Source: an uncultured Bacteroidales bacterium (GTDB lineage: Bacteria > Bacteroidota > Bacteroidia > Bacteroidales > VadinHA17). Taken from it: 64,000 nt of DNA. The DNA lies in NCBI GenBank assembly GCA_963789985.1, contig CAWBNA010000015.1, positions 76,302-140,301 on the forward strand, written 5' to 3'. The stretch's first letter is position 1. Each line of letters begins with the position of its first letter. Under the pieces are notes generated by a model. It ran no database searches, was not told where the DNA came from, and saw only the letters and a program-made list of their open reading frames with translations. This document shows, piece after piece, positions 6,727 to 45,242 of this stretch. Both the position numbers and the translations under genes were made by a program.

Positions 6727-6739
6727 AAAATAATTACAT

Positions 6740-7423
6740 ATGAATTTACCGGATACTATATTAATTATTGACGATGAAGTGCAAATACGTCGTCTGCTTG
6801 AAATAACCCTTTCATCTAATGGATATAAGGTTTCTGAAGCAGCCACCGGCAAGGATGGAATTATTGCTGCCGCCACCCATAATCCGGCACTGATTATTCT
6901 TGACCTTGGATTACCGGATGTTGATGGCGGCGAAGTCCTGAAAAAAATAAGAGAATGGTACCAGAAACCTGTCATTGTTCTTTCGGTCAGGAATTCCGAA
7001 GACGATGTAATAAACGCTCTTGATAACGGAGCCAATGATTACCTTACAAAACCCTTCAGAACAGGGGAACTTCTTGCACGTATCAGAGTTGCTTTACTTC
7101 ATAAGCCGGATAATGCGAATAATACCAATCTGACTTTTGATACGCTCACAATCGATCTGCCAAATCATATTGCCCGGAAGAACGGTGAAATTATCAAATT
7201 AACTTCTACCGAATTTTCACTTTTGGCTCTCTTTGCAAAAAATTCAGGAAGGGTGCTCACTCATCAGACCATCTTAAAAGAAATATGGGGGTTCGGATAT
7301 GTTGGCCAGACCCAGTATTTAAGAGTCTTTGTAGCTCAGCTCAGGAAAAAAATCGAGGATGATCCGGCTAAACCAAAATTGCTTATTACTGAATCAGGAA
7401 TCGGATATCGCTTCAATGAATAA
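6740..7423 (+). CDS. kdpE: OmpR-family response regulator, KdpE-like
   Basis: 227 aa, starting 13 nt after the kinase stop. The receiver block ILIIDDEVQIRR...LIILDLGLPDVDG...PVIVLSVR...GANDYLTKPF closely parallels E. coli KdpE. C-terminal winged helix (GYRF). Confidence 0.8.
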   Translation: MNLPDTILIIDDEVQIRRLLEITLSSNGYKVSEAATGKDGIIAAATHNPALIILDLGLPDVDGGEVLKKIREWYQKPVIVLSVRNSEDDVINALDNGANDYLTKPFRTGELLARIRVALLHKPDNANNTNLTFDTLTIDLPNHIARKNGEIIKLTSTEFSLLALFAKNSGRVLTHQTILKEIWGFGYVGQTQYLRVFVAQLRKKIEDDPAKPKLLITESGIGYRFNE

Positions 7424-7656
7424 TTTAAACCTGAAAAAAGAACTGCTTTTGGTTGCCCGCCGCTGTTTCTCTGATCTGATTCCGGAGTGAATAAATTTCA
7501 GTCTGGCAAACCTGAATTAAATAATATGGGTGGGGTTTCCCGAATCGGTACTGTTAATGTTTTAACAAATATTTAACGCATTGATACAACCATATTTCCT
7601 CGCTTTGAAATAATTTCACCCGGTTTTTTGTAATCATAATGCTAAACCGATTTGAG

Positions 7657-8583
7657 ATGGATATTATTATTGAGAATCTTACCAAGCGATTCGGAAATCA
7701 AAAAGCTGTAGACAATATTTCCCTGAAAGTTGCTACAGGTGAGATACTTGGATTTCTAGGACCTAATGGCGCCGGGAAAACAACCACAATGAAGATCATC
7801 ACTAACTACATTTCTGCAGATGAAGGCAGAGTAATTATCGGCGGAAAGTTGCTGGACGATGATCCTCTGGAGATCAAAAAGCATATAGGCTATCTTCCGG
7901 AGAACAATCCCCTGTATCTGGATATGCCCGTGGTGGATTATCTTGAGTTCTGTGCAAGGATAAACAATATTGAAAAGGACAAGCTTGGAAAGCGTGTAGT
8001 TGAAATGATAATGATGACCGGCCTGAACAAGGAAAAACATAAGAAGATAGGAGAGCTGTCGAAGGGTTTCCGGCAGAGGGTAGGACTTGCCCAGGCAATG
8101 ATACATAATCCTGAAATACTGATTCTCGACGAACCTACATCAGGTCTCGATCCTAACCAGATAGCCGAAATTCGCAGGCTGATACGTGAACTGGGTCGTG
8201 AAAAAACAGTGATCCTGAGCACCCATATTCTCCCTGAAGTCGAGGCTACCTGCGACAGGATTTTTATTATCAATAAAGGGAAGCTCGTTGCCGACGGGAC
8301 CGCCGAAACACTGAGAAAAAAGGCTCAGGGATCTGATATAATAAGGGTCAGGATAGAAGATGGTGATCCGAATCAGATATTTAAATCCCTGCAGGGCATA
8401 CCTTCCGTGTCAATGGTCGATTTTGCCGACAGGCACCTGAACAGGTTTGACGTCCACTGCCGGACCGATGAGGTAAAGCGTGAAATTTTCAGGCTTTGCG
8501 TTGATAAGAAATGGGTGCTTACCGAAATGACACCTTTTGAGACAAAACTTGAAGATATCTTCAGGGAACTGACAATGAATTAA
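7657..8583 (+). CDS. gldA: Gliding-motility-associated ABC transporter ATP-binding subunit GldA-like
   Basis: Walker A GPNGAGKTT, signature LSKGFRQR, Walker B ILILDEPTSGLD. The N-terminus MDIIIENLTKRFGNQKAV resembles F. johnsoniae GldA. The ORF track starts at 7639, but the Met at 7657 fits the family N-terminus better. Confidence 0.8.
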   Translation: MDIIIENLTKRFGNQKAVDNISLKVATGEILGFLGPNGAGKTTTMKIITNYISADEGRVIIGGKLLDDDPLEIKKHIGYLPENNPLYLDMPVVDYLEFCARINNIEKDKLGKRVVEMIMMTGLNKEKHKKIGELSKGFRQRVGLAQAMIHNPEILILDEPTSGLDPNQIAEIRRLIRELGREKTVILSTHILPEVEATCDRIFIINKGKLVADGTAETLRKKAQGSDIIRVRIEDGDPNQIFKSLQGIPSVSMVDFADRHLNRFDVHCRTDEVKREIFRLCVDKKWVLTEMTPFETKLEDIFRELTMN

Positions 8584-8594
8584 AATCTTTGATT

Positions 8595-9320
8595 ATGCAA
8601 AACGTCTGGACAATTACAAAACGTGAATTAAACTCATTTTTTGATTCATTGATAGCCATTATCATGATAGTGCTTTTTCTCGGTTTTACGGGATTCTTTA
8701 CCTGGATATCAGGATCTGATATTTTTCTTGTCGGGCAGGCAAGCCTACGCACTTTTTTCGGGATAGCCTACTGGACCCTGTTTTTTTTCATACCGGCTCT
8801 CACAATGCGTCTGCTGGCCGAAGAGAAAAAAACAGGCACTATCGAAATGCTTCTTACAAAACCTGTTACCGACAGACAGGTAATACTTGGTAAATACCTT
8901 GCAACCCTTATTCTGATTGCTATCGCACTGGCTTTCACGCTGCCATATGTAATTACAGTGGCCAAAATCGGGAACATTGATGTAGGAGGCACTCTGTGCG
9001 GATATCTGGCTCTTTTGCTGATAAGCGCAGCTTACGCCAGCATAGGTCTGTTTACAAGCAGTCTTACAAGTAACCAGATAGTGGCTTTTCTTTCGGCTCT
9101 GTTCATCGGGCTTTTCTTCCATATTATCTTCGAAATCATCGCCGGCGGCATGAAAGGATTCTTCGGGCAGATAATCAACACCTTAAGCATGACTGTTCAC
9201 TTTGAAAGTCTTTCACGGGGTGTGCTTGATTCCAAAGACCTTATTTATTTCGCGTCGATAATTTTCATGGGATTATTCCTTACAGAAGTCTCGCTTTCCA
9301 GGCGCAATGCTTATAGTTAA
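8595..9320 (+). CDS. gldF: ABC-2 type permease, GldF-like
   Basis: About 241 aa with 6 TM segments, immediately after gldA. The track start at 8589 is TTG; the first ATG is at 8595. Confidence 0.7.
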   Translation: MQNVWTITKRELNSFFDSLIAIIMIVLFLGFTGFFTWISGSDIFLVGQASLRTFFGIAYWTLFFFIPALTMRLLAEEKKTGTIEMLLTKPVTDRQVILGKYLATLILIAIALAFTLPYVITVAKIGNIDVGGTLCGYLALLLISAAYASIGLFTSSLTSNQIVAFLSALFIGLFFHIIFEIIAGGMKGFFGQIINTLSMTVHFESLSRGVLDSKDLIYFASIIFMGLFLTEVSLSRRNAYS

Positions 9321-9327
9321 CTGATCA

Positions 9328-10878
9328 ATGGGAAAAAACAAATCAAATTCTGAAAGGAATATGAATAAGACTGCAAAAATATCAACAACAATAATACTGA
9401 CAGTATTTATCCTGCTAATAGTGAACATTCTGTCAGAAAACTACAGTTTCAGGGTCGACCTTACCGAAGGCAGGGAATATACCCTGGGTACTGCTACACG
9501 AAATATCCTGAAAAACCTTGAAAAGCCTGTGACGGTAACTACATATTTTTCAAAGGACCTTCCTCCCAGCCTGGGGAATATATCCGGCAATCTGAAGGAT
9601 ATGCTGATCGAGTACGGCAACAGGTCCAGGGGACTGGTGGTATATAAGTTTGTGAATCCTAATGAAAAGGAAGATCTGGAACGCGAAACTGTTAAGAACG
9701 GGATTCGTCCGGTAATGATCAATGTAAGGGAGAAAGATCAGGTTAAGCAACAGAAAGCCTACATGGGAGCTGTGGTTTCAATGGGAGACGAAAAGGAGAC
9801 AATACCGTTCTTTCAGCCCGGCGCTGCTATGGAATACGCCTTGTCGACAGCCATCAAGAAACTTTCAGTTACAAACAAACCTGCCGTAGCCTTGATCGAA
9901 GGACATGGTGAACCAATGATAAATGAACTCTCGCAGGTTTATGACGAACTGAGCGTCCTGTACAGCGTTGATCCCCTTAAACTTACCGATACCACAGATA
10001 TTCCTGAAAAGTATAAAACAATTGCAATCATAAGACCAACTGACACTATCCCGGAGGTACAGATTGCCAAGCTTGACAATTTTCTGGCCCGGGGGGGAAA
10101 TATTTTCCTTGCGATAAACAGGGTTGAAGGCGATTTCCAGAGTGCCACCGGTAAAGCAATAAGCACAGGACTTGAAGAGTGGCTGAACAGGAAGGGATTG
10201 ACTATTTCTGATAATTTCGTTATTGATGAAAACTGCGGTAAGGTGACGGTTCAGCAGCAACAGGGAAATTTCATAATGTCATCGCAGGTATCATTCCCTT
10301 ACCTGCCGCTGATCTCAAAGTTTGCCGATAATCCTGTTACAAAAGGACTGGAAGAGGTTAGCCTGCAGTTTGCAAGCCCTCTCACTTACTCAGGGGGTGA
10401 CAGTACGAAAAAATTCATCCCGATAGCCTTTTCTTCTTCAAAGTCAGGCACTGTGAAAGCGCCTGTTTATTTTGATATTCAGAAACAATGGACACAGAAT
10501 GAATTTCCGATGTCGGGAATTGCCGTTGCAGGAATTCTTGAAGGAAAATTATCCGGAAACCAGAATTCAAAAATCATCGTGGTTTCGGATGGTGATTTTG
10601 CTGTAAACGGCTCACAAAGAGGAAGCAGGCTGCCCCAGGATAATATTAACCTGCTGGTAAATTCCATAGACTGGTTATCGGATGATACGGGATTAATAGG
10701 ATTGCGGACAAAAGAGGTGACATCGCGCCCGATAAAAGAGATGGCTGACGGTACAAAAACCTTCCTTAAATGGCTTAACTTCCTTCTGCCGATCGTACTT
10801 GTGATCATTTACGGGTTTGTCAGAATGCAGATCAACCGCAACAAACGGATAAAAAGAATGGAGGTTGACTATGAGTAA
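9328..10878 (+). CDS. gldG: GldG-like ABC-transporter auxiliary protein (ABC-type uncharacterized transport system domain)
   Basis: 516 aa with an N-terminal TM anchor, a large periplasmic region and a C-terminal TM. Its position after gldA-gldF matches the gldF-gldG pairing. Confidence 0.7.
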   Translation: MGKNKSNSERNMNKTAKISTTIILTVFILLIVNILSENYSFRVDLTEGREYTLGTATRNILKNLEKPVTVTTYFSKDLPPSLGNISGNLKDMLIEYGNRSRGLVVYKFVNPNEKEDLERETVKNGIRPVMINVREKDQVKQQKAYMGAVVSMGDEKETIPFFQPGAAMEYALSTAIKKLSVTNKPAVALIEGHGEPMINELSQVYDELSVLYSVDPLKLTDTTDIPEKYKTIAIIRPTDTIPEVQIAKLDNFLARGGNIFLAINRVEGDFQSATGKAISTGLEEWLNRKGLTISDNFVIDENCGKVTVQQQQGNFIMSSQVSFPYLPLISKFADNPVTKGLEEVSLQFASPLTYSGGDSTKKFIPIAFSSSKSGTVKAPVYFDIQKQWTQNEFPMSGIAVAGILEGKLSGNQNSKIIVVSDGDFAVNGSQRGSRLPQDNINLLVNSIDWLSDDTGLIGLRTKEVTSRPIKEMADGTKTFLKWLNFLLPIVLVIIYGFVRMQINRNKRIKRMEVDYE

Positions 10879-11830
10879 AAGATATGATAATAAAAAACTG
10901 ATTTATGTTCTGGCCGGTTTGCTGGTAATCCTGCTGCTTACCGTGTTCATTAAAATACCAAAACAAAAATCAACTATTAAGGACAGACTCGTTGACATTG
11001 ATACTGCTGAAGTGGACAGGATTGCAGTTACCCCAAGGGTTTCAATCGGGGCGCCTTTTGAATTTGCAAGGGAGAATGGCAAATGGAATGTCATTCAGGG
11101 CAATATCATTGCTGATCCTGTCAAGAACGCTATCATCAATATCTTCTCAGAAATTCTTGAGATAAAGCCTCAAAGCCTTGCAGCAATAGACAGATCTAAA
11201 TGGAATGACTACGACCTGAGTGACACCGCCGCAACACAAATAAAATTTCTCAATAAAAAGGGAAAAGTGCTTGCCGGTCTGATGATCGGAAGATTTACAT
11301 TCAAACAGGTCAGTAATCCGTACGCATCAGGCGGAAATAATGTTGAAGGAACAACTTTTGTAAGGCTTTCAAATGAAAATAAAATATATGCTGTCGAAGG
11401 GTTTCTTGCCCTGTCATTCAGTGGAAAGTTCAGTGACTGGCGCGATAAATCTTTTGTCAGGTGTAATAAGGACGATATTCTAAAGATCACATTTTCTTTC
11501 CCGGGCGACAGCAGTTTTATCCTTATGAAAAAGGATCAACGCTGGTTTATAGGAGATCAGCAGGCAGATACGACAGCTGTTGCAGACTATCTGAATAGTC
11601 TTTCATATATGAATGGCGATGAATTTGAAGATGGCTTTAAACCAGTTACAAAGCCCGAATACACGGTATCTGTGGAAGGAAATAACCTTTTGAATTTCAA
11701 TGTCAGGAGTTTCATAAGGCAAGGGACAGGAGAGTACGTTCTTAATTCAAGTCTAAATCCTGATTTATACTTTGCCAGCAAACCGGATGGACTTTTCAGT
11801 CAGGTCTTTAAATCAAAAGCAGATTTTTAA
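10871..11830 (+). CDS. DUF4340-like protein (usual partner of GldG-type proteins)
   Basis: About 319 aa with an N-terminal TM anchor. ATG at 10871 overlaps the gldG stop (ATGAGTAA), suggesting translational coupling. The track start at 10865 is TTG. Confidence 0.6.
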   Translation: MSKRYDNKKLIYVLAGLLVILLLTVFIKIPKQKSTIKDRLVDIDTAEVDRIAVTPRVSIGAPFEFARENGKWNVIQGNIIADPVKNAIINIFSEILEIKPQSLAAIDRSKWNDYDLSDTAATQIKFLNKKGKVLAGLMIGRFTFKQVSNPYASGGNNVEGTTFVRLSNENKIYAVEGFLALSFSGKFSDWRDKSFVRCNKDDILKITFSFPGDSSFILMKKDQRWFIGDQQADTTAVADYLNSLSYMNGDEFEDGFKPVTKPEYTVSVEGNNLLNFNVRSFIRQGTGEYVLNSSLNPDLYFASKPDGLFSQVFKSKADF

Positions 11831-16221: not shown

Positions 16222-18246
16222 TCAATTCTTTACGACTTTCTTCGTAGTGGAGCCATTTGTTGTCAACGCTTTGATTAAATAAATGCCTCTGGCAAACCGA
16301 CTCATATCCAGCTCAAGAATTTTGCTGTCCGCCGGCATTGTAAAAAGCAAGCTGCCGGATACATCATAAATACTGATTGACTTTATTTCAGTTCCATTTT
16401 GAATTTCGAGTATATCTTTTACGGGGTTTGGAAATAATTGCAGAGTCAGGTCAGAAGGAATATTTTGATCATTAAAGAGTTGAAGATTGGATGCAACCCA
16501 GTTGGAAGGATCATTGTTGTCAAGATCAGGGTCGATCAGTTTCAGGTAATACCCATTGCCGTTTGCGTCCGGCCAGGGAAGGGAGTCTGCATAGTTGACA
16601 TTATCAATTATGTTCCCATATCCATCGACCATTACCAGATTCTGCCCCTTGTCTGACAGATTCCTGGTAAACTGGCCAAAGGGAACAAAGCCATATCTGA
16701 TCTTAAAGACAGAAGTATTGCTTGCAAGAATTATTGAAGCATGCGGGAGAATTGTGGAATTGGCAGGAAACTGGTAGACAAATCCTGTCCCGCTGAAATA
16801 TATTCCGGTCAGGTCCACTGTTTGATCTCCGTTGTTTGTAATCTCTATAAACTCCTGGTCCTCGCTTTTAAGCGGTGTAACTGTCGACGGCGGGTTGTAC
16901 ATGATTTTTGTGATAACAAGAGGAGGAACGGGAACATTGCTGCAGTCAGAGTATGAACCCAGGTTTGCTGTCATCCAGTCTATTCTCGTCGCAAGATAAC
17001 TTTTGATGTCGGCAATGCGCTTTTGAAATTTATCGGCAATATTCCATCGTAAATCATTACGGGTGACTGCTTCACTTATTATTGGAACAGCCTGGTCTAT
17101 AAAGGTTTCCATGCTGGTCAGATTCAATGGCTGCCCTGGCTGGATAAGCTCATTCCATCTTTTTGACAGCTGACATCTGAAGACATCGCTGTTGAAAAGA
17201 TCCAACCAGAACCTGGACCCTTCGTTATCACCATTTGAAAACTGCCAGATATCCGGTTTGCTCCTGTCGTATCCCCATAAAAACAGATCATTTCCGTAAG
17301 TCAGATCATTGTCCCAGACCGGACCTGCTCTCAGTTTCCCATTCCTGTCCTTATGGAAAAATGTGCTGTACTGATATGCATCCGGATTTGAGGCCAGTTC
17401 CTCAATAATCATATAGTCGACAAATGAGGGTATATCAATTACAGAGGGATACCCAGCGGTGACTGAAATATCATTATTGTAAGAGGTTGCCGCAAGGAAC
17501 CGGAACTGACTGCAGATATAATCATTCTGGGCCTGGGTTACGTTCTTAGGTTTTGGCACCACGTGAATGTAATACTGTTCCTGTCCATTCTCCGACTCCA
17601 TTATCCATGCAATCGGATCAGATCCCGGTTTGTCGCATTTAGTAATATAACCGCCGGTTACAGCCGGCATTGAATTATCATTAAAACCGATGCTGATAAC
17701 ATTAACCCTGTTTATATCAGCTTTGACCTTTTCCTGAAGGACATAGAGCCCTTTGTAATTACCATTGATTACCACTTCACAATATGCTGTCCGTGAGGCA
17801 TATTCTCCGATTTGCCTTGAGAGGTTATATGTCAGATAATCACGTATGAATGCCGTGTCAAAGCCCATTGCGTTAATAACCCACGAATAATGACCGGGCA
17901 TACCAAGAAGATTGACATTATTCTTTGTGTAGTCGTCGGACTTATATGTCGAAATACTGTATTGTTTCTTTTCCGGGTATTGGGTGGATTGTCCCCTGAT
18001 TTTTATATTAATTCTGCCGTTATAGTTCAGATATGCCGGATTATTCTGATCTGTCATATAGTTTCGTTCTCCCGAAGGTCTGCAAATGACTTTCATCGAT
18101 CCAAACACTTTCACAGAATCGTTTATTTCTGCACCGTTATCTGTGCTTATTATCATTATCGGAAGGTTGCTGTCAGTTAATGATTGGGCTGAGTCCAGTC
18201 CGCAAATTGAAAGACACAGGAATATTATGGATAAAGTCTTTTTCAT
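16222..18246 (-). CDS. Secreted CotH-family atypical kinase with lamin-tail domain and T9SS C-terminal sorting domain
   Basis: Probable start MKKTLSIIFLCLS at 18246 (track ORF runs to 18351). CotH blocks IKIRGQST, FIRDYLTYNLSRQIG, GLYVLQEKV and GPVWDNDLTYGN. LTD-like EFIEITNNGDQTVDLTGIYFS at about 16492-16923. CTD LFPNPVKDILEI...IYDVSGSLLF...GIYLIKA at 16225-16446. Confidence 0.8.
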   Translation of the reverse strand: MKKTLSIIFLCLSICGLDSAQSLTDSNLPIMIISTDNGAEINDSVKVFGSMKVICRPSGERNYMTDQNNPAYLNYNGRINIKIRGQSTQYPEKKQYSISTYKSDDYTKNNVNLLGMPGHYSWVINAMGFDTAFIRDYLTYNLSRQIGEYASRTAYCEVVINGNYKGLYVLQEKVKADINRVNVISIGFNDNSMPAVTGGYITKCDKPGSDPIAWIMESENGQEQYYIHVVPKPKNVTQAQNDYICSQFRFLAATSYNNDISVTAGYPSVIDIPSFVDYMIIEELASNPDAYQYSTFFHKDRNGKLRAGPVWDNDLTYGNDLFLWGYDRSKPDIWQFSNGDNEGSRFWLDLFNSDVFRCQLSKRWNELIQPGQPLNLTSMETFIDQAVPIISEAVTRNDLRWNIADKFQKRIADIKSYLATRIDWMTANLGSYSDCSNVPVPPLVITKIMYNPPSTVTPLKSEDQEFIEITNNGDQTVDLTGIYFSGTGFVYQFPANSTILPHASIILASNTSVFKIRYGFVPFGQFTRNLSDKGQNLVMVDGYGNIIDNVNYADSLPWPDANGNGYYLKLIDPDLDNNDPSNWVASNLQLFNDQNIPSDLTLQLFPNPVKDILEIQNGTEIKSISIYDVSGSLLFTMPADSKILELDMSRFARGIYLIKALTTNGSTTKKVVKN

Positions 18247-18519
18247 ATAAAGTCCGGGAAGAGTTTCTGTACATAAATTATGATGGCAGGGCCTGAAACG
18301 CCTGAGGCTTTTGTTATACTCCAAATAGGGCTTTCTTCTGTTTCCCGGCATGTCATATTTCCATGTTTTTTGAATGTATTAAAATACGTAATATAGTACA
18401 TCGATATTGTACGCGGGGTATTTTTATATTTTATTGCCTATGTTCCGGGAATAAACATTCCTAAGCAGGCAAATAGCCGGTACTTGATTACAGAAATGGA
18501 AATTTATTACTGGAACGCA

Positions 18520-19203
18520 CTAATCCTTCATACAACGGACCGAATAGCCCGATTGCTTAACACTGAGGCTGCTGTAGAGATCATTGAGAGTGCTGTACAT
18601 GCGCCGGTAGTAGGCATTGAAGTAGTAGCGTTCCGTAGAGCTCCACCAACAACCGTTGGAACGGAAGAAAACAATGTTGGAGCCTGAACTGTATTCGAAT
18701 GTTCCGTTACTGTTACGGAAACCGCCCGGCAGTGCCGTAAAACCAGTTTCGTTGGTTGTCCCCGCATTAGGACTTTCCCAATGGGTTGTTCCCTTTTCCT
18801 TTAATTTGCCGCCGGCAACACTTTCACCTCCCAGATAGATCGTCAGTGTCCTCCATTCAGTATCAGAAGGTACATGCCAGCCTCTGGGGCATAATTTATT
18901 TGTATTGACCGTGAACCAATTATACAAAGCCCCATATGTTTTTTTGGCGGCTGCATCATTTTTATATAAACAATAGGCGGGGGTTGTCAATGCTTCCCAT
19001 GCCTTGTCATCTTTAACCAATGGAATGGCTGTGCCATCATTATATTTCGTAGTTTTCAGATTCTCCGCCATCCAAACCTGCGTGCCAATGGTAACGGTTT
19101 TATAAACATTGCCTTCAATATCCTTAATGGTCTGTGACTGCAGCCCTGCAAATCCCATCCAAAAAAAGCCTATGGCAAATAATATCAGATTTTTATACCG
19201 CAT
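18520..19203 (-). CDS. FISUMP (Fibrobacter succinogenes major paralogous) domain protein
   Basis: Blocks IGTQVWMAENLKTTKYNDGTAI, YGALYNW, GWHVPSDTEW, GFTALPGGFR, WWSST and SVRC. The signal peptide begins at the Met at 19203 (track ORF to 19242). Confidence 0.8.
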   Translation of the reverse strand: MRYKNLILFAIGFFWMGFAGLQSQTIKDIEGNVYKTVTIGTQVWMAENLKTTKYNDGTAIPLVKDDKAWEALTTPAYCLYKNDAAAKKTYGALYNWFTVNTNKLCPRGWHVPSDTEWRTLTIYLGGESVAGGKLKEKGTTHWESPNAGTTNETGFTALPGGFRNSNGTFEYSSGSNIVFFRSNGCWWSSTERYYFNAYYRRMYSTLNDLYSSLSVKQSGYSVRCMKD

Positions 19204-19803
19204 TTTGGTTATCCTTTTGAATATTTGATATTGTAATTCCATAATTCATTGATTTTGACTTAGTCAAACTCCTCGCTTCAGGCAATCTTGAATTTCTTAT
19301 ACATAATGCCCCATAGTCATATTTTTGTTTTTATATATCACAATGCTCTTCAGTTATTTAAAAGGACGAAATTTAATTAAGATATTTCAGAATAAATAAC
19401 CTAAATCGGAAAATCAGTTGTAATGTTAATTTCCCGGTTTCAGAAATTTATTCAGAGCGGATTTTCGGGGATTCAGATTTTAAGGGATTAATTGACCCCG
19501 GATACCTGGTATCCGATGTTTTTGTAAAGAAATTCCAACTCATTGATTACCATCTTTTATCCGGACAAATAGTTATACCTTTTATTTATTAATGAATTCT
19601 TCCGATATATTTACAACAAAAAACCTTTATTTTAAATACCAAAATCTCCCGGCTTTCTTTTATTGCCAGTTTCTGCATTGATATTTGATTTTATTTATCA
19701 AACTTGCATTAAAAATTGATTTAATTTGATCTTTGATATTTTGGCTGATAAACCCGTAGTTCCGGATTTAAAAATATACTATCAATAATATTTCTAAAAC
19801 ATT

Positions 19804-20634
19804 ATGCATGAAGTAATTGTCAGAAACCAGAAAATAAGCGATAAAAATTTCTTTCTGATCGCAGGGCCCTGTGTCATTGAAGAGGAAAAAATAATGATGG
19901 CAGCGGGAGAAAAGCTTAAGACCTTATCACAGAAATTGGACCTGCCGGTAATTTACAAGTCATCCTTTATGAAGGACAACAGAAGCTCAGTGGATTTTTT
20001 TGCAGGTCCGGGGTTGGATGAAGGATTGAAAATGCTGGAAAAGATCAGGCATACTTTTGACCTGCCGATATTATCGGACATCCATTATCCTGATCAGATC
20101 AATGCTGCGGCTGAAGTACTTGATGTTATTCAGATACCGGCTTATTTATGCATGCAGACCATACTTGTTGTTGAAGCTGCAAAAACAGGGAAAGCAATTA
20201 ACCTGAAGCACGGGCAGTTCATTGCACCGGAGAATATGGGGAAACCGGTTAAAAAAATTGAATCTCAGGGCAATTATAACATTATTCTTACTGAAAGAGG
20301 GTACACTTTTGGTTATAACGACCTTATAGTGGACCCAAGAAGTTTTCATGAGATGCGAAAATTTGGCTACCCTGTCGTTTTTGATATTACTCACAGTATC
20401 CGCAGGTATGGTATACCCAGCTCTGATCCTGCAGGGGGGTTGAGAGAGTATTTACCTGTGATTTCAAGGGCCGGAGTGGCATCTGGCGTGGACGGGATAT
20501 TCATAGAAGTCCACCCCGACCCTGCAAATGCAAAATGTGATGCTGCAAGTCAGCTTAAGCTTGATAATCTTGAAGAGTTTATCAAGCCACTGATAGAAAT
20601 TCATTATACAGAAAAAAAATACCGTATCAAATAA
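19804..20634 (+). CDS. kdsA: 3-deoxy-8-phosphooctulonate (Kdo8P) synthase, metal-dependent type
   Basis: 276 aa. FFLIAGPCVIE (Cys at the position that marks metal-dependent KdsA; E. coli has Asn), KSSFMKDNRSS, GPGLDEGLKML and VIQIPAYLCMQT parallel KdsA along its whole length. Confidence 0.85.
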   Translation: MHEVIVRNQKISDKNFFLIAGPCVIEEEKIMMAAGEKLKTLSQKLDLPVIYKSSFMKDNRSSVDFFAGPGLDEGLKMLEKIRHTFDLPILSDIHYPDQINAAAEVLDVIQIPAYLCMQTILVVEAAKTGKAINLKHGQFIAPENMGKPVKKIESQGNYNIILTERGYTFGYNDLIVDPRSFHEMRKFGYPVVFDITHSIRRYGIPSSDPAGGLREYLPVISRAGVASGVDGIFIEVHPDPANAKCDAASQLKLDNLEEFIKPLIEIHYTEKKYRIK

Positions 20635-20646
20635 AATGATGAGTTT

Positions 20647-21663
20647 ATGGAACTTTATCTTGATTCAATAAAGATAGAAGAGGTCCGTGAAGCAAATGAA
20701 CTAGGATTCCTTTACGGACTGACGACCACCCCGACTTTTATGCACAGAGAGGGTATAAAGGATGTTGACTCTGCAATCCTCAGTTTGTCAAAAATGGTAA
20801 ACATACTTCACGTTGAAGCGTTAGGCGACAATGCAAAAGAGATTGTTGATGAAGCTGAAAGACTTTTGGGCCTTGGATTGGATAAGGAGAAAGTCGTGTT
20901 TAAAATCCCGATTTCCCTTGAAGGAGCAAAAGCCTGCAAGATTCTCACAAACAAAGGAATAATGGTAAACCTTCATCTTGTTTATACTCTCCAGCAGGCA
21001 TATATGGCATATTGTGCAGGCGCCACATATGTCTGTATTCTCGTCGGCAGACTGCAGGATCAGGGACACGATGCGCTGGCGCTTATAGAACAATGCATGA
21101 AAGCTATGGTACAATATGATTATAAAACCAAGATTATGTTCTCTTCCGTAAGGAATGTCGAGCATGTCAGAAATGCAATAAATCTTGGTGTTCATGCCTG
21201 TACTTTGCCATGGAATATCTTAAAGCAACTTCCTCAGAATCATTTTACTGAAATAGGTATACAACAATTTGTAGAGGATCAGGAATTGTTAACAATCAAA
21301 GCTTCTGATCTTATGATAACCAGGAACGTATTCTTAAATTTTAACTCAACAGTTCTTGATGGGATGATGCTTATGACAAGTTCAAAACTGGGAGCTGTAA
21401 TTGTTCTTGATGACGATAAAAAGATTTACAGGATTTTTACTGATGGTGATCTCAGGCGATTATTACAATCAGGTAATTCTGCCTTGCTCCATAATAAGTT
21501 CAAAGAACTGCAATCCAATAAACCAATATCGATCGAAATCAATGCCCCGCTTACCGAAATTATCAGCTTAATTAAAGCCAAACAAGTTGATAATCTTGTT
21601 GTTATGGAAAAGAACAAGCCAAAGGGGCTTGTTGATATTCAGGATTTATTAAAATGGATCTAG
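20647..21663 (+). CDS. Fusion protein: transaldolase-family fructose-6-phosphate-aldolase-like domain + KdsD/KpsF-type CBS pair
   Basis: 338 aa. N-terminal ~215 aa: MELYLDS...GLTTTPTF, Schiff-base Lys context VVFKIPIS and YVCILVGRLQD parallel E. coli FSA/TalC. C-terminal ~120 aa: RIFTDGDLRRLL and the CBS pair parallel the KdsD C-terminus (GIFTDGDLRRV). Confidence 0.75.
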   Translation: MELYLDSIKIEEVREANELGFLYGLTTTPTFMHREGIKDVDSAILSLSKMVNILHVEALGDNAKEIVDEAERLLGLGLDKEKVVFKIPISLEGAKACKILTNKGIMVNLHLVYTLQQAYMAYCAGATYVCILVGRLQDQGHDALALIEQCMKAMVQYDYKTKIMFSSVRNVEHVRNAINLGVHACTLPWNILKQLPQNHFTEIGIQQFVEDQELLTIKASDLMITRNVFLNFNSTVLDGMMLMTSSKLGAVIVLDDDKKIYRIFTDGDLRRLLQSGNSALLHNKFKELQSNKPISIEINAPLTEIISLIKAKQVDNLVVMEKNKPKGLVDIQDLLKWI

Positions 21664-22325
21664 AAAAGGTATTTATAAAACTCGGAGGCACTTTTTTAAC
21701 TCCTGCAAGACAAATCAAAGCTTCACTGACCGGTATCAGAGCATTTGTATTTGACTGGGATGGAGTTTTTAACAGCGGGATAAAAACCGGTGATACAGGA
21801 AGCCCCTTTTCAGAAATTGATTCAATGGGCATCAACCTGTTAAGATTCAGCCACTGGTTAAAAAACGGTCAGATACCTCATACTTTTATTATTACCGGGG
21901 TGAATAACAGCGCTGCAATTGAATTTTCAAAAAGAGAGCATTTTGACGGTATATTTATGAATCTGAAGAATAAGAGACTGGCAATTGAAAGCATCTGTGA
22001 TTTACATAAAATATCCCCGGATGAAATTGCTTTTGTTTTTGATGATGTAATAGATATTGACGCTGCAAAGACATGCAGATTATCATTTTTTGTGAATAAT
22101 AAGTCAAATCCGCTGCTTGTCAACTATATCATACAAAATAAAATCTGTAATTACATTTCCACATTTTCCGGAGAAAATCACGCTGTGAGGGAAATATGCG
22201 AACTTCTGACCGGCCTTAACGGGAATTACGATCGGGTTGTTGAATTGCGTATCAGATTTGAGGGAGAGTATGAAGATTATCTTAAATCAAGAGATCAGAT
22301 TAATACTCAGGCAACGACATTCTAA
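21654..22325 (+). CDS. HAD-superfamily phosphatase, KdsC-like
   Basis: 223 aa. DxD nucleophile motif FVFDWDGVFNSG (compare KdsC DVDGVLTDG), FIITG, and AFVFDDVIDIDAA (compare YIGDDLID). The start overlaps the upstream stop by 10 nt. Confidence 0.65.
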   Translation: MDLEKVFIKLGGTFLTPARQIKASLTGIRAFVFDWDGVFNSGIKTGDTGSPFSEIDSMGINLLRFSHWLKNGQIPHTFIITGVNNSAAIEFSKREHFDGIFMNLKNKRLAIESICDLHKISPDEIAFVFDDVIDIDAAKTCRLSFFVNNKSNPLLVNYIIQNKICNYISTFSGENHAVREICELLTGLNGNYDRVVELRIRFEGEYEDYLKSRDQINTQATTF

Positions 22326-22402
22326 CCGCGGGTGAGACAGATTGTTTTATGCCATGAAATAACCTTATTTCCCGTTTAATATCTTTTCAACATGTAGCAG
22401 GG

Positions 22403-23479
22403 CTACATCCGGCGAAACCAGTTTTTTATTCTTTCCTCATTAACCTCTTTCTGCCAGTCCGGCCCATAGGCATGGCGCCACATATGATCGAGTCTAATGG
22501 CAGTGTCAGCCATTTTGGTTAACTGCTCCACGTTTAATTTTTTTGATATGCCTTCCGGAATATCAATACTATTTTTTTTAACCATTTGGTGAAATTCCCT
22601 GACATCATCCTGATAGACATCCTCCAATACGTTAAATGCTATACAATTAGCAATTCCATGATGCAATCCAAGAACATATGAAAGGCCATATGAAAGGGCG
22701 TGGCAGACGCCCACCTCGCTGAATCCGATACTCAGTCCTCCAAAATAGGATGTAACCATCAGCTTCTCATCAGCTTCCTGGCGGCTGAGTTTATCATTAA
22801 GAAAAACTTCACGGCATAATTCCTGAGATTGCAAGGCATACGCATCACTGATACTATTTTTGTTCGTGCCGTTTAAAGATTCCACATTGTGAATATAAGC
22901 GTCAGCCCCTGTATAGAACCGCTGGTTTTTGGGAGCTTCAGAGATCAGCTCAGGATCAAGTATGATCAGATCAAAAGGTGTGTATTCACCTTTAATTCCA
23001 AGTTTCTTTTCCGGACCGGTAAGAACAGCTGTCATTGATACTTCAGCACCGGTGCCCGACAGGGTTGGAACACCGATATGAAAAACCCCCGGGTTTTTTG
23101 CAAGATTAAGTCCCTGGTAAAGTGACGAGGATCCCTGGTTAGTAAGCATGACAGAAACAGCTTTTGCATAATCCATTGTACTCCCTCCGCCAATCCCTGC
23201 AACGGCAGAAGGCAGGGACTTCCGGCTGCCAATTATCTGATTACGGATTTTATCAACGATAATTGTTTTAGGCTCATCATCAACATTGACCCATATTATC
23301 GTATCCAGGCCTTTAAGAGGAATGCTTTGTGAAAATGGTTTATTCTTAAAATAATCATCAACAAGAAAAACCGTATATGCTCCACTGTAATTCTTTTTTT
23401 CCTCAAGAATATCAGATAACTGGTTGAAGCTGCCTTTCCCGAAAACACATTTGGGAACTGTTTTGATAATCCTGTACAT
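22403..23479 (-). CDS. Group III iron-containing alcohol dehydrogenase, KdnB-like candidate
   Basis: 358 aa. GIGGGSTMDYAKAV, PTLSGTGAEVS, GADAYIHNVES and CHALSYGLSYVLGLHHG are Fe-ADH fingerprints, not the dehydroquinate-synthase GGGVIGD type. Confidence 0.75.
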   Translation of the reverse strand: MYRIIKTVPKCVFGKGSFNQLSDILEEKKNYSGAYTVFLVDDYFKNKPFSQSIPLKGLDTIIWVNVDDEPKTIIVDKIRNQIIGSRKSLPSAVAGIGGGSTMDYAKAVSVMLTNQGSSSLYQGLNLAKNPGVFHIGVPTLSGTGAEVSMTAVLTGPEKKLGIKGEYTPFDLIILDPELISEAPKNQRFYTGADAYIHNVESLNGTNKNSISDAYALQSQELCREVFLNDKLSRQEADEKLMVTSYFGGLSIGFSEVGVCHALSYGLSYVLGLHHGIANCIAFNVLEDVYQDDVREFHQMVKKNSIDIPEGISKKLNVEQLTKMADTAIRLDHMWRHAYGPDWQKEVNEERIKNWFRRM

Positions 23480-23527
23480 AAATCCTGTCCTTTTTATTTT
23501 AATAATATCTTAAATACAACTTTACTT

Positions 23528-24718
23528 TTAAAAGGCCTCATTAAATGCTTTTTCAATTCCCTGCATCAGCATTTTTAAATCATTTTCAGTCCAGGTGATC
23601 CTGATCTGGATGGATATCAGCCTCGACATAATAGTGTCTGATTTTGGTATCTTCAAAGTTGCATAATCCTGCGGCGGGTCAAGCATTGTAATTGCAAGTC
23701 TGGCTGCAGTTTTCATTTGTTTTATATGGTTCCAGTTTTTAAAATAATGGTAATTATTATCGTACCAGTATGAATAGCTAATACCATATTTATCAAATCC
23801 CTGCAGAACTTTTCTTGCTACTGCTTCATTTTCCAGAAAAAAATCAAGAAAGGTAGCGCTGTCGCCATTTTTATCCGGGATCTTTCTCATACTTATACCG
23901 GGGAATTTTGTTAAAAATTGCTCCAGTTTGAGTTTATTGGCACGCTGATGCATTAGAATATACGGTAGTTTTCTGAATTGTGCCAGACCTATCGCCGCAT
24001 GCAGTTCACTTATCCGGAAATTTGTTCCGATAATATTATGAGGTTCCGCGCCCCTGTTATCACCTGTATGGCAATGGCCATGGTCAGAATGCTGAGAGGC
24101 GATTTCATATAAAGCAGGATCATCAGTGATAATTGCACCACCTTCCCCGGCGGTTATAATCTTAAAAAAGTCAAATGAAAAAATGGCAATTTTCCCGAAA
24201 GTTCCCAGCATTTTTCCATTGAATGAAGCTCCAAGAGCCTGAGCTGTATCCTCAATTAAAATAAGGTTACGTTTTTTACACAGATCTGAGATCTTATCTA
24301 TCTGAGCCATTGATCCGCACATATGAACCAGCATAACTGCTTTGGTGCGCGGAGTTATGGCCTTTTCAATACTATCAGCTGAAAGGCACAATGTTTCATC
24401 AATGTCAGCAAACACCGGAACAGCACCTGCCTGAAGCACAGCCTCAACCGGTGCAATGAAAGTGAATGTCGGCACTATTACCTCATCTCCGATTCCGATG
24501 CCACAGGAAGCAAGAGCCAGATTATCGGCAGTGGTACCGCTCGAAGTCAGATGAGCAAAACTAACTTTGTAATATTCGGCAAGCTCTTTCTCGAATGTTT
24601 TTGCTTTCCATTGACCATTTCTTTGTTGATCATGATTATAACGAAAAAGGATACCTGTTTCAAGCACATCCATTATTTCCTTTTTTTCTTCTTTCCCAAA
24701 AAGTTCAGTACCTGGCAT
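23528..24718 (-). CDS. DegT/DnrJ/EryC1/StrS-family PLP aminotransferase, KdnA-like candidate
   Basis: 396 aa. SGTTADNLAL, DEVIVPTFTFIAPVEA and PLP-Lys context FSFDFFKIITAGEGGAI. It lies 48 nt upstream of the Fe-ADH gene on the same strand. Confidence 0.8.
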   Translation of the reverse strand: MPGTELFGKEEKKEIMDVLETGILFRYNHDQQRNGQWKAKTFEKELAEYYKVSFAHLTSSGTTADNLALASCGIGIGDEVIVPTFTFIAPVEAVLQAGAVPVFADIDETLCLSADSIEKAITPRTKAVMLVHMCGSMAQIDKISDLCKKRNLILIEDTAQALGASFNGKMLGTFGKIAIFSFDFFKIITAGEGGAIITDDPALYEIASQHSDHGHCHTGDNRGAEPHNIIGTNFRISELHAAIGLAQFRKLPYILMHQRANKLKLEQFLTKFPGISMRKIPDKNGDSATFLDFFLENEAVARKVLQGFDKYGISYSYWYDNNYHYFKNWNHIKQMKTAARLAITMLDPPQDYATLKIPKSDTIMSRLISIQIRITWTENDLKMLMQGIEKAFNEAF

Positions 24719-24909
24719 AACAAATATGTATTTAATGACGAATCAAAAGTATAAGAAATAATCTCTCAATGTTGGTTAATTGAATTAATTTGAATTCCAA
24801 TTTGAATTTGTTCAAATTACAGGTAAATCAAATATAATTTCTATTTTTGGCGTTTTAAGAAAAAAAGTGTTAGTAATAATCTGGTAATTTGAAATAACAA
24901 ATTTGAACA

Positions 24910-25869
24910 ATGAGAAAGATTGCAGGTATTCTGATCGTCTCCGCTTTAATTGGTACAAACCTCCAGGCACAGGAACGGAATGATGTGATAAAAGCCTATA
25001 ATGAAGGCGCAAAGTCGATGCAGACTGATGTCCCGGCTGCTATTAAGTCGTTTGAGGATGTAATTACACTTTCTGACAAGGTTGGTGATAGCGCAGCCGA
25101 CCTAAAACAAAAGGCCGTACAGGTTTTGCCGGGATTGTATGTCAAAGCTGCCGCCAACACCCTTAGCGACAAAAAACCGGCCGTTGAGGTAATTAAAGCT
25201 GCAAAGGCAGCTGACAAGGCAGCTGAAAAATACGGAAGTGCAACAGGCAGGGAAAATGCCCGGAAGATTTTGTCACAAGGATATTATAACCTGGGCACTG
25301 AATTTTTTATCAGTAAGGATTATAATAATGCCCTGCTGGCATTTGACAGTCTTTTGGTGATCAACCCCGGCTATCCTGCGGCAATTTATAACAAGGCCCT
25401 GGTATTCAGAAATCAGAATAATGCCGCCGGCTTTGAGGAAAATATAGACTTATTTATTGATAAAATGAAGAGCGGTAATGATTCGGCAAGAGTAAAACAG
25501 GCATCCAGACTGGCACTTGAATATTTCAGGGCAGCCGGATCTCAGGCAAACCAGGCAGATAAGCTTGATGATGCTCTTGCAATGTTCAATAAAGCTGCAA
25601 AATACGGCGACGACAAGGACCTTTTCTATTACTTCGCCGATGTCTATAACAAGAAGAAGAATTTCGACAGCGGAGCAGAATATGCCCGGAAAGGTCTGGC
25701 CCTTGAGACCGGTGCTGCTGATGCAAAAGCAAAATTCTACTTTCAGCTTGGCCTTGCTCAGGCAGGTAAGGGACAGACTGCTGATGCCTGCGCTTCATTT
25801 AAAAATGCCATGTACGGACCTTTTGCCGCACCATCAAAAGCACAGAGAACAAACCTGAAATGTAAATAG
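24910..25869 (+). CDS. Secreted TPR-repeat protein
   Basis: 319 aa with a signal peptide. Ala/Lys-rich helical repeats with a TPR-like pattern (YYNLGTEFF..KDYNNALLAFD, YNKALVF). Confidence 0.6.
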   Translation: MRKIAGILIVSALIGTNLQAQERNDVIKAYNEGAKSMQTDVPAAIKSFEDVITLSDKVGDSAADLKQKAVQVLPGLYVKAAANTLSDKKPAVEVIKAAKAADKAAEKYGSATGRENARKILSQGYYNLGTEFFISKDYNNALLAFDSLLVINPGYPAAIYNKALVFRNQNNAAGFEENIDLFIDKMKSGNDSARVKQASRLALEYFRAAGSQANQADKLDDALAMFNKAAKYGDDKDLFYYFADVYNKKKNFDSGAEYARKGLALETGAADAKAKFYFQLGLAQAGKGQTADACASFKNAMYGPFAAPSKAQRTNLKCK

Positions 25870-26108: not shown

Positions 26109-26942
26109 ATGATAGAGACATTTACTGACGATTTCAAGATGACTGATATGGGAAAAACAAAAAAGAGTATCATAATAAGTGGGGCCATTATCCTTCTTTT
26201 TTCTTTCGGAAATCTGGCAGGCAAAACCGATCATCCGGGTGGATCAGATTCTGGCCAGACAAGTCCAAATTCTGCTCAGACAAAAACAAAATCCAATCAG
26301 ACTAAAACAAAGTCCGCTCAGGCTAAATCAAAATCCGCTCAGAAGAGTTCAAAAACCACACCGGTTAACAAGAACAAAGATTCCGGAACCGTCAGGATCG
26401 GTACACAAACCTGGGCGATAGCAAACCTGAATGTGAGCACTTTTCGAAATGGCGATTCAATTCCTGAGGCAAAAACCAACAAAGAATGGGAAAAATACGG
26501 TGAATCAGGAAAACCTGCATGGTGTTACTATAATAATAACCCTGTAAACGGTCCAAAATATGGTAAACTGTATAACTGGTTTGCAGTGAACGACCCAAGA
26601 GGATTAGCTCCTGTCGGCTGGACTTTGCCGGGTGACCCTGATTGGGCAAAGCTGACTTATTATTTAGGAGGTCTGGATGCAGCCGGCAATAAAATGAAAA
26701 GCACCAGTGGATGGATTGATGGCAACAATGGCACCAACGAATCCGGCTTTATTGGTCTCCCCGGAGGTTATCGGGTTGAGAACGGAGCATTTCTCAATAT
26801 GGGTAGTATTGGCACATGGTGGAGCTCTACAGAAAGTAAGTCTCTTGAAGCATTTGACCACTACCTTGCACTGAACGGCAGTTTAGGAAGAAGCAGCAGC
26901 TCCAAACGGTCCGGAGAATCAGTTCGTTGCCTGAAGAACTAG
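26109..26942 (+). CDS. FISUMP-domain protein with Lys/Ser/Thr/Gln-rich repeat linker
   Basis: IGTQTWAIANLNVSTFRNGDSIPEA, YGKLYNWFAV, GWTLPGDPDW, GFIGLPGGYR, WWSSTE and SVRC. Alternative start at MGKTKKS (26148). Confidence 0.8.
   Translation: MIETFTDDFKMTDMGKTKKSIIISGAIILLFSFGNLAGKTDHPGGSDSGQTSPNSAQTKTKSNQTKTKSAQAKSKSAQKSSKTTPVNKNKDSGTVRIGTQTWAIANLNVSTFRNGDSIPEAKTNKEWEKYGESGKPAWCYYNNNPVNGPKYGKLYNWFAVNDPRGLAPVGWTLPGDPDWAKLTYYLGGLDAAGNKMKSTSGWIDGNNGTNESGFIGLPGGYRVENGAFLNMGSIGTWWSSTESKSLEAFDHYLALNGSLGRSSSSKRSGESVRCLKN
26277..26360 (+). repeat. In-frame 21-bp (7-aa) tandem repeat, 4 units
   Basis: Units are cagacaaaaacaaaatccaat, cagactaaaacaaagtccgct, caggctaaatcaaaatccgct and cagaagagttcaaaaaccaca. 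They encode QTKTKSN, QTKTKSA, QAKSKSA and QKSSKTT. Confidence 0.85.
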
Positions 26943-27199: not shown

Positions 27200-28369
27200 A
27201 TGAATAAAAAACTTCTGATAATCAGTCTGCTGATAATAGGATCCGGGGTTGTTGCTTTATCGCAGAGTCCTGATAATGAATATTTTAAGCAACCATCGAT
27301 TCTGGATACTGCTAATAGCCAGAAGATTCTTTTCAGAGTTGAGGACATAAATTTTTTCAGGAATCTCGAATATTTCAGTCCGATAGCAGAAGGGCATACA
27401 TATATTGGATTTATTTTACGACCATCCTTTGCTTATCAGCCTACATCCAATACCTGCTTACAGGTCGGGTATCATTTTCTGAAATATTCAGGAATTGCCG
27501 GCTTTTCACAGACCATACCTTTCCTGAGATTTCAATACCGGATAACACCCGGGCTGGATCTGATAATGGGAAGCTTATACAGTACATTAAATCACAGGAT
27601 GATTGAGCCGATGTATGGTTTTGACAGATATATAGAAGACAATGTTGAAAATGGAATAGAGTTTTTATATCATAATGAACATTACAGAGGAGATTTATGG
27701 CTGAACTGGGAGAAGTTTATCGGATTCGAAGATCCGCAGAAAGAACAGTTTTCTGTAGGTTATACATCGGAGATTATTCTCACAAGCCCATCTAAACCTC
27801 TGAAAATCAGTATTCCTGTCCAATTCTTATTCGCACATAAGGGAGGACAGAATACTCTTGACACCACCGCTATGTTTACTCGTTTTAACGGAGCCGCAGG
27901 TTTGTCAATAGAGCATAGTTTTGATCGCCCGTTCATTAAAAGTATCGGTGGTTATGGATATTATCTGGTTTACAAAGATCTTGTAACACCACACGAAATT
28001 GCTTATACTTCCGGAAATGCAACTTATGTAAATATTTATTTAAATACTGCATTCATTAATTTTACAATTGGACACTGGAGAGGTTTTCAATTTTTCAATC
28101 CACGGGGGGAAAGGTATTTTAGTAATATTTCTACAATAGATGATCCTGAGCGATTGGCTGTACCGACACCCGGCCAATATAAAACACCGGTCAGGAATTT
28201 ATTTTTATCAAAAGTATTTATTCATCATGAGGTTAATAATGGGATTAAGCTGGCCGCAGCTTATGAATCCTTTTATGATTATAAAAATTCAAGATATGAT
28301 TTTTACTATGCCCTGTATGTGCTATGCAACATGGATTTTTTTATTCATAAGGTACACTTTACTAACTGA
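27200..28369 (+). CDS. Hypothetical secreted protein, probably outer-membrane beta-barrel
   Basis: 389 aa with a signal peptide. Aromatic-rich alternating pattern. No family recognised. Confidence 0.5.
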   Translation: MNKKLLIISLLIIGSGVVALSQSPDNEYFKQPSILDTANSQKILFRVEDINFFRNLEYFSPIAEGHTYIGFILRPSFAYQPTSNTCLQVGYHFLKYSGIAGFSQTIPFLRFQYRITPGLDLIMGSLYSTLNHRMIEPMYGFDRYIEDNVENGIEFLYHNEHYRGDLWLNWEKFIGFEDPQKEQFSVGYTSEIILTSPSKPLKISIPVQFLFAHKGGQNTLDTTAMFTRFNGAAGLSIEHSFDRPFIKSIGGYGYYLVYKDLVTPHEIAYTSGNATYVNIYLNTAFINFTIGHWRGFQFFNPRGERYFSNISTIDDPERLAVPTPGQYKTPVRNLFLSKVFIHHEVNNGIKLAAAYESFYDYKNSRYDFYYALYVLCNMDFFIHKVHFTN

Positions 28370-44458: not shown

Positions 44459-44461
44459 GGT

Positions 44462-45238: not shown

Positions 45239-45242
45239 CGTC

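Follow-up and report, generated by a model that had tools for sequence, protein, structure and literature searches.

The window examined here is a stretch of 64,000 nucleotides from an uncultured Bacteroidales bacterium (GenBank assembly GCA_963789985.1, contig CAWBNA010000015.1, positions 76,302 to 140,301), and it contains a cluster of five genes (19804-24718) that is likely to encode a pathway for 3-deoxy-D-manno-octulosonate (Kdo) together with the conversion of that sugar to 8-amino-3,8-dideoxy-D-manno-octulosonate (Kdo8N). Three of the genes lie in a row on the forward strand: kdsA, for a Kdo-8-phosphate synthase of 276 aa (19804-20634; assigned by NCBIfam and by the Pfam domain DAHP_synth_1); a gene for a 338-aa protein, here called X, in which a transaldolase-like domain is joined to a pair of CBS domains of the type carried by the arabinose-5-phosphate isomerase KdsD (20647-21663; Pfam TAL_FSA and CBS); and a gene for a divergent, KdsC-like phosphatase of the HAD family (223 aa; 21654-22325; assigned by PDB matches and HAD motifs). 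The other two lie on the reverse strand and converge on the HAD gene across a gap of 77 nt: an orthologue of kdnB, of the iron-containing alcohol dehydrogenase (Fe-ADH) family (358 aa; 22403-23479), and an orthologue of kdnA, for a pyridoxal phosphate (PLP)-dependent aminotransferase of the DegT family (396 aa; 23528-24718). The favored reading is of a Kdo operon with X in the place of KdsD and with kdnB and kdnA attached for the making of Kdo8N. What the sequences show directly is the identities of the genes, their orthology and the conservation of the operon; the enzymatic steps, what becomes of the product and, most of all, what X does are inferred from these. The five open reading frames (ORFs) are found exactly where an initial annotation of this DNA had put them, with the same strands and spacings, including an overlap of 10 nt between the start of the HAD gene and the stop of the X gene and a gap of 48 nt between the Fe-ADH and DegT genes.

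The two converging genes encode full-length orthologues of KdnB and KdnA of Shewanella oneidensis. For the Fe-ADH protein, the best match in the PDB is S. oneidensis KdnB (5k8c; E 1.2e-119, 403 bits), followed by 3rf7 (401 bits), which was deposited as "iron-containing alcohol dehydrogenase" only, as compared to 97 bits for the next distinct solved family. Alignment by BLASTP gives 52% identity to S. oneidensis KdnB over 352 aa, and the key residues of the motifs GGGSTMD, FYTGxDxYIH and CHAxSYGLSYxLGxHHG are identical between the two proteins; the Asp and His motifs among these would hold the metal ligands, as is general in the Fe-ADH family. The DegT protein finds its best match in KdnA (5k8b, 8-amino-3,8-dideoxy-alpha-D-manno-octulosonate transaminase; E 4.8e-138, 464 bits), to which it aligns end to end (residues 1-393 to 1-394), and the BLASTP identity is 53% over 393 aa with the lysine of the SFDxxK motif kept. 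No other DegT structure scores above 165 bits, and these alignments are confined to the core of the window protein (about residues 39-283). Among the NCBIfam models, the window KdnA scores 198 bits against the LegC family (cutoff 420) and 180 bits against PseC (cutoff 424), and neither protein reaches the equivalog cutoff of any nucleoside diphosphate (NDP)-sugar aminotransferase or of any other Fe-ADH (LegC, PseC, WecE, ArnB, lactaldehyde reductase and others). The initial annotation had proposed a KdnB/KdnA-type pair and had called for a comparison of both proteins with KdnB, KdnA and the other clades of their families. In that comparison KdnB and KdnA come out best by about 300 bits, and the pair does not fall among enzymes of other characterized specificity, since no other NCBIfam equivalog cutoff is reached by either protein. 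The proposal thus holds as full-length sequence orthology, and it is a well-supported prediction that the pair carries out the step from Kdo to Kdo8N.

An alignment of the aldolase-CBS protein served to look for relatives of X among species-representative genomes, and of the loci recovered the 80 best were used for comparison. Such relatives are found in at least 526 species, mostly of the Bacteroidota (Bacteroidales, Cytophagales, Saprospiraceae, Flavobacteriales, Chitinophagales and Sphingobacteriales), with Thermonema rossianum and Thermoflexibacter ruber, both cultured, among them, and several metagenome-assembled genomes (MAGs) of Desulfobacterales also carry X. Among named relatives the nearest at the locus is a MAG of Bacteroidales, with protein identities of 78-85%. 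The order kdsA-X-HAD is broadly conserved: kdsA lies directly upstream of X on the same strand in 56 of the 74 loci with room for it, and the HAD gene lies directly downstream, again on the same strand, in 62 of 74. In 14 of the 80 loci kdsB also adjoins the operon on the same strand, and the four-gene operons of the form kdsB-kdsA-X-HAD include those of the Desulfobacterales MAGs L031, L058 and L061. Five MAGs of Desulfobacterales/Desulfobacteraceae and Deltaproteobacteria (L031, L058, L061, L070 and L071) have the X gene and, after it, the HAD gene, and all but L071, which is short, also have kdsA upstream. Compared with the Bacteroidales proteins, KdsA and the fusion protein of these MAGs are 55-67% identical and the HAD protein 45-48%, which suggests that the module has been transferred laterally as a unit.

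The kdnA and kdnB genes are much less regular companions. They are present in 11 of the 80 loci, the other 69 being kdsA-X-HAD loci that lack them, and in 7 of the 48 loci with at least 5 kb of sequence on both sides. The positive loci come from at least five orders of Bacteroidota and differ in arrangement. Convergent genes as in the window are seen in L004 and L005; a co-directional series kdnA-kdnB-kdsA-X-HAD is seen in L037, L039, L066, L072, L076, L079 and L083, four of which (L066, L072, L076 and L083) continue into kdsB to make six-gene operons; and in L042 and L069 the pair lies on the opposite strand a few kb upstream. Outside the 80 loci, an abundant Cytophagales genome (L084) also has the co-directional five-gene series, a Calditrichaceae genome (L086) has the order kdsB-kdnA-kdnB, and a Magnetomoraceae contig carries a solitary kdnB with neither kdnA nor any Kdo gene. 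It appears from this distribution that kdsA-X-HAD is a conserved, general Kdo operon, probably of a housekeeping nature, and that kdnA/kdnB is an accessory that has recurrently docked onto Kdo genes. The functional link that the initial annotation drew between the pair and the Kdo genes is borne out by its recurrence beside kdsA, X and the HAD gene in several orders of Bacteroidota and beside kdsB in Calditrichaceae. The idea of a dedicated route to a modified sugar has to be given up, for the three-gene operon usually occurs by itself.

Of the two flanking members of that operon, KdsA scores above the NCBIfam equivalog cutoffs (341.7 bits on NF003543, cutoff 242; 334 bits on TIGR01362, cutoff 314). 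It shares 62-85% identity with the KdsA proteins encoded directly upstream of the X gene in 56 of 74 related loci, and it has the AGPCVIE motif with the Cys of the metal-dependent type, as had been noted initially. The HAD protein is named KdsC-like only, because it falls below the KdsC equivalog and subfamily cutoffs. No Pfam match was obtained for it, and its top PDB matches are all KdsC structures (2r8e, E 1.6e-8), to which it can be aligned at the HAD motifs DxDGV, TG, K and DDxxD. The description of this protein as a KdsC-like HAD phosphatase is therefore sound insofar as KdsC proteins (YrbI) are its nearest solved relatives, share its four motifs and suit its place in an operon with kdsA, but the cutoffs for KdsC itself are not reached, and the window protein is about 35 residues longer, with additional segments at both its N- and C-termini. 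Its weak homology and its operon position lead us to propose that it may be the Kdo-8-phosphate phosphatase.

The domain composition of X is unusual. The Pfam TAL_FSA domain covers residues 3-201 and the CBS pair covers approximately residues 215-338. The term "aldolase-CBS fusion" used in the initial annotation is correct as to the CBS fusion, but the N-terminal domain lies nearer to the short transaldolases than to fructose-6-phosphate aldolase (FSA), with scores of 115-121 bits against the transaldolases 3r8r, 1vpx and 3s0c as compared to 55-66 bits against FSA. An FSA-type aldolase was considered and rejected on these scores, which are double for the transaldolases, and on the transaldolase-like character of Glu57 and of the VGR motif. 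On the NCBIfam model TIGR00875 the score is 160 bits (cutoff 246). The AlphaFold2 (AF2) model of X (pLDDT 88) has a transaldolase fold that matches 1vpx and 3s0c with a Foldseek target TM-score of 0.86 and with 32-34% identity in the fold-search alignments. X shares this fold and the Schiff-base lysine with the short (subfamily 4/5) transaldolases and FSA, as represented by the Bacillus subtilis (3r8r), Thermotoga maritima (1vpx) and Thermoplasma acidophilum (3s0c) enzymes and by Escherichia coli FsaA, and it differs from them in its active-site pocket, in its CBS pair and in its linkage to Kdo genes rather than to pentose-phosphate genes.

The pocket differences are consistent throughout the 83 X-family sequences compared. 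Asp6, Glu57, Lys86 (the Schiff-base residue), Asn108, Arg135, Ser167 and Arg169 are kept in all 83, as in the solved transaldolases. At four other positions, which we take to line the catalytic pocket from the mechanisms of the T. acidophilum enzyme and E. coli TalB, the family departs from them: Thr110 is replaced by His, Phe132 by Leu and Asn28 by Thr in 83 of 83, and Ser130 is replaced by Cys in 77 and by Thr in the remaining 6. Among more distant representatives (28-41% identity) the trio of His, Cys and Leu persists and position 28 varies. By these features of its sequence X is not an ordinary transaldolase. A Bacteroidota MAG (L081) encodes, at 10279-10920 of the locus and 7 kb from the X gene, a canonical short transaldolase with the motifs TTNPS, NCTLVF and YVSPFVGR whose identity to the enzymes of T. 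acidophilum and T. maritima is 54-55%; in that genome the fusion protein is not the housekeeping enzyme.

The C-terminal portion of X points in a different direction, to the arabinose-5-phosphate isomerases KdsD, KpsF and GutQ. Its CBS pair is matched by TIGR00393 (KpsF; E 1e-14 over residues 215-328) and by NF008141 (KdsD; E 5e-13), and the best solved matches are isolated CBS pairs of arabinose-5-phosphate isomerases (4o9k, 3k2v and 3fna). An IFTDGDLRR motif occurs family-wide in this part of X, and E. coli KdsD carries the same motif. A single E. coli KdsD sequence, used as query, aligns from about its residue 200 with the C-terminus of every fusion, in a stretch that includes this motif. 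What X shares with this family is the CBS pair and the place between kdsA and the KdsC-like gene, sometimes together with kdsB. The SIS catalytic domain of the isomerases is absent and a transaldolase-fold domain stands in its stead, so that X is not a member of the KdsD family. The same query turned up no SIS-type KdsD elsewhere in the window, nor in the 1.43 Mb of sequence that makes up 87 loci. In the searchable literature no description was found of a transaldolase-CBS fusion tied to kdsA, KdsD or Kdo.

Some of the more distant sequences differ further from X. The Schiff-base lysine has been lost from four full-length proteins with both the transaldolase and CBS portions (P0246, P0247, P0255 and P0276; 28-38% identity), which have Ser or Arg at position 86, and most of their pocket is changed, the FTDGDLRR motif of the CBS pair being kept; these may be pseudoenzyme or sensor derivatives. 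Three proteins of about 215 aa (P0267, P0271 and P0277) have the signature of His110, Cys130 and Leu132 and no CBS pair, which may mean that the altered pocket predates the fusion or is independent of it, or alternatively that the gene calls are truncated.

Entry into Kdo synthesis is generally considered to require arabinose-5-phosphate isomerase. On balance we incline, with some reserve, to the view that X supplies arabinose 5-phosphate to KdsA in place of KdsD, because it occupies the KdsD position in operons of the form kdsB-kdsA-X-kdsC-like, carries the CBS module of KdsD and has a remodelled pocket for sugar phosphates. Chemistry of this general kind has precedents within the fold. E. 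coli FsaA forms arabinose 5-phosphate from glycolaldehyde and glyceraldehyde 3-phosphate, and the F178Y variant of TalB makes arabinose 5-phosphate and also ribose 5-phosphate (PMC9947464); the position in X that corresponds to F178 of TalB is Leu. X might act by aldol formation from the same two substrates as FsaA, or it might epimerize ribose 5-phosphate to arabinose 5-phosphate and back at C2 by way of a Schiff base. Such an epimerase could use a retro-aldol/aldol sequence in which the C2 fragment is not released, or it could remove a proton from C2 and then restore one, and the new His and Cys are possible candidates for its acid/base pair. The KdsD-type CBS domains would presumably be regulatory.

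In the pathway that we envision, X would convert pentose or triose phosphates to arabinose 5-phosphate, which KdsA, by its family membership, would condense with phosphoenolpyruvate (PEP) to give Kdo-8-phosphate, and the KdsC-like HAD protein would release free Kdo. By orthology, KdnB is then predicted to oxidize the C8 alcohol of Kdo to the aldehyde (8-dehydro-Kdo), and KdnA, with its PLP cofactor, to transaminate this intermediate to Kdo8N. Activation to cytidine monophosphate (CMP)-Kdo8N by KdsB and transfer to lipid A by WaaA would follow, so that the inner core of the lipopolysaccharide (LPS) would bear an amino group. As had been remarked at the outset, neither kdsB nor waaA is found in the rest of the window. 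Their encoding elsewhere presents no difficulty and the last two steps are plausible, since E. coli needed only to express the genes from Shewanella in order to form Kdo8N-lipid A (Gattis et al. 2013, as reviewed in PMC4402001). According to the same review, Shewanella lacking these genes was more sensitive to polymyxin and to bile salts.

Three other explanations of the cluster deserve consideration, and they differ in which of its genes they reinterpret. It may be that the cluster does make Kdo8N and that X is a transaldolase of the pentose phosphate pathway regulated by CMP-Kdo or by nucleotides. The transaldolase fold, the retention of Lys86, Asp6, Glu57 and the phosphate site, and the fact that true transaldolases are the best solved relatives of X would all fit this explanation, as would the location of X away from kdsA in some species, and the search for KdsD covered loci rather than whole genomes. 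We nevertheless think it unlikely that X is such an enzyme, since the replacements of Thr110, Ser130 and Phe132 run throughout the family, a canonical transaldolase coexists with X in L081, no SIS-type KdsD turned up in the sampled loci, and in the operons with kdsB, those of Desulfobacterales MAGs included, X takes precisely the place of KdsD.

The remaining two explanations concern the kdnA/kdnB pair and its relation to the operon. A second, dedicated pathway for Kdo8N, with paralogous kdsA and kdsC genes beside a housekeeping set of kdsA, kdsD and kdsC, would suit the contiguity of the five genes, and the evidence at hand spans loci rather than the whole genome. Such a separate pathway was rejected on the distribution of the operon, and we consider it improbable: kdsA-X-HAD without kdnA/kdnB in 69 of 80 species loci, its frequent junction with kdsB and a KdsA that exceeds the equivalog cutoffs all indicate the main Kdo operon and not accessory paralogues. 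The dehydrogenase and aminotransferase might also act on some other substrate (candidates are ulosonic acids like Kdn, sugars activated by a nucleotide, and primary alcohols that are not sugars), their nearness to kdsA being incidental. Specificity can drift at 52-53% identity, the characterized enzymology is from Shewanella only, and one Magnetomoraceae contig has a kdnB that stands alone. That the pair serves another substrate is nonetheless very improbable, given alignments that run end to end and extend into both terminal regions of KdnA, where alignments with the rest of the DegT enzymes do not reach, scores below the equivalog cutoffs of the NDP-sugar aminotransferases, and linkage of the pair to kdsA and HAD genes in five or more orders of Bacteroidota and to kdsB in Calditrichaceae.

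Several considerations weigh against a Kdo operon in which X replaces KdsD and in which KdnB and KdnA make Kdo8N. The HAD protein scores only 47 bits on the KdsC model NF007019 (cutoff 208) and 40 bits on TIGR01670 (cutoff 107). In L007 and L012 X lies apart from kdsA among unrelated housekeeping genes; X could, though we doubt it, be a regulated pentose-phosphate enzyme in organisms that encode KdsD elsewhere; and the lack of a SIS-type KdsD, on which the proposed replacement by X draws, was seen in 1.43 Mb of locus sequence rather than in whole genomes. If X worked as an aldolase, a source of glycolaldehyde sufficient for LPS synthesis is not obvious, which is a weakness of that option. KdnB is classed as an O2-dependent oxidase, and the Bacteroidales host may be anaerobic. 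Kdo8N has been called a "hallmark of Shewanella species" (PMC6357163), and the searchable literature reports it from Shewanella only.

This last point bears on how widely the sugar may be spread. In a review, Kdo8N is said to be "found exclusively" in Shewanella (PMC4402001), and KdnB is the sole characterized member of its Fe-ADH subfamily in a CDD-style classification (PMC5125639). The KdnB family is nonetheless large: when sequences are clustered at 90% identity, more than 7,900 of the clusters match the KdnB-like protein at a threshold of E <= 1e-40, and these come from Bacteroidales, Cytophagales, Rapidithrix, Calditrichaceae, Verrucomicrobia and Magnetomoraceae, with one homologue (P0086) belonging to Rapidithrix thailandica; many of the homologues have already been called Kdo 8-oxidase by the JGI pipeline. 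The initial annotation had taken the pathway to be described only for Shewanella, and this remains true of the chemistry of Kdo8N in the searchable literature but not of the genes, which occur in several phyla. The window and S. oneidensis share the same two enzymes, encoded by adjacent genes and 52% and 53% identical over their full lengths. They differ in that the host of the window is a Bacteroidales MAG and not a gammaproteobacterium, in that the pair is attached to an operon of kdsA, X and the HAD gene, and in that Kdo8N is known chemically in Shewanella and predicted from genes in the lineage of the window. Kdo8N in Bacteroidota is a credible prediction, resting on genes that have in part been annotated automatically.

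A gene for a TPR protein (24910-25869) and the genes for FISUMP (Fib_succ_major) domain proteins on both sides of the cluster (18520-19242, reverse strand; 26109-26942, forward strand) were considered as conserved partners and set aside, as they do not adjoin the cluster in relatives. A scan of positions 19200-25000 for promoters and terminators gave only consensus-level matches, and a clear terminator between the convergent operons was not found there. A gene at 27200-28369 (forward strand, 389 aa), 2.5 kb from kdnA, encodes a protein like the lipid A deacylases (Pfam Lipid_A_deac, PF28590) with a weak score on the NCBIfam model LpxZ (171 bits, cutoff 460), and a distant homologue (26% identity) is encoded just past kdnA in the closest relative of the window locus, L004. 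This may be a small neighborhood of LPS-remodelling genes, and the deacylase-like gene offers mild contextual support for such remodelling.

Elsewhere in the window, a protein of 709 aa with CotH kinase and lamin-tail domains and a C-terminal sorting signal of the type IX secretion system (T9SS) is encoded at 16222-18351 on the reverse strand and looks like a secreted protein of the CotH type. A single ORF at 37198-38703 (forward strand, 501 aa) joins AmmeMemoRadiSam protein B (residues 26-300) to protein A (327-494), and the 520-aa product of 38814-40376 (reverse strand) resembles the model for "3-succinylated cholic acid synthase" (414 bits, cutoff 800). There are also an MlaD/MlaF/MlaE-like ATP-binding cassette (ABC) system for lipid asymmetry (43484-46037, reverse strand), a GldA/GldF/GldG ABC system for gliding motility (7639-10878, forward strand) and a KdpD/KdpE-like two-component pair (5185-7423).

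The wider proposition, that X is a hitherto unrecognized enzyme forming arabinose 5-phosphate by means of a Schiff-base lysine and a new pair of His and Cys, that it has displaced the SIS-type KdsD but retained its regulatory CBS module in at least 526 species, mostly Bacteroidota and with some Desulfobacterales, and that a subset of these lineages turns the Kdo into Kdo8N, is one that we hold tentatively, as a possibility somewhat short of even. Should a transaldolase-derived enzyme fill the KdsD step in hundreds of species, there would be an alternative entry to the textbook Kdo pathway, and calls of pathway completeness (e.g., for the KEGG CMP-Kdo module) would be wrong for genomes that have X. 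The clear orthologues of kdnA and kdnB, found in thousands of lineages of Bacteroidota, Calditrichota, Verrucomicrobia and Desulfobacterota, predict that an amino group on the first core sugar is a common feature of the outer membrane among environmental bacteria, in which case Kdo8N would be widespread in nature and no longer a hallmark of Shewanella.

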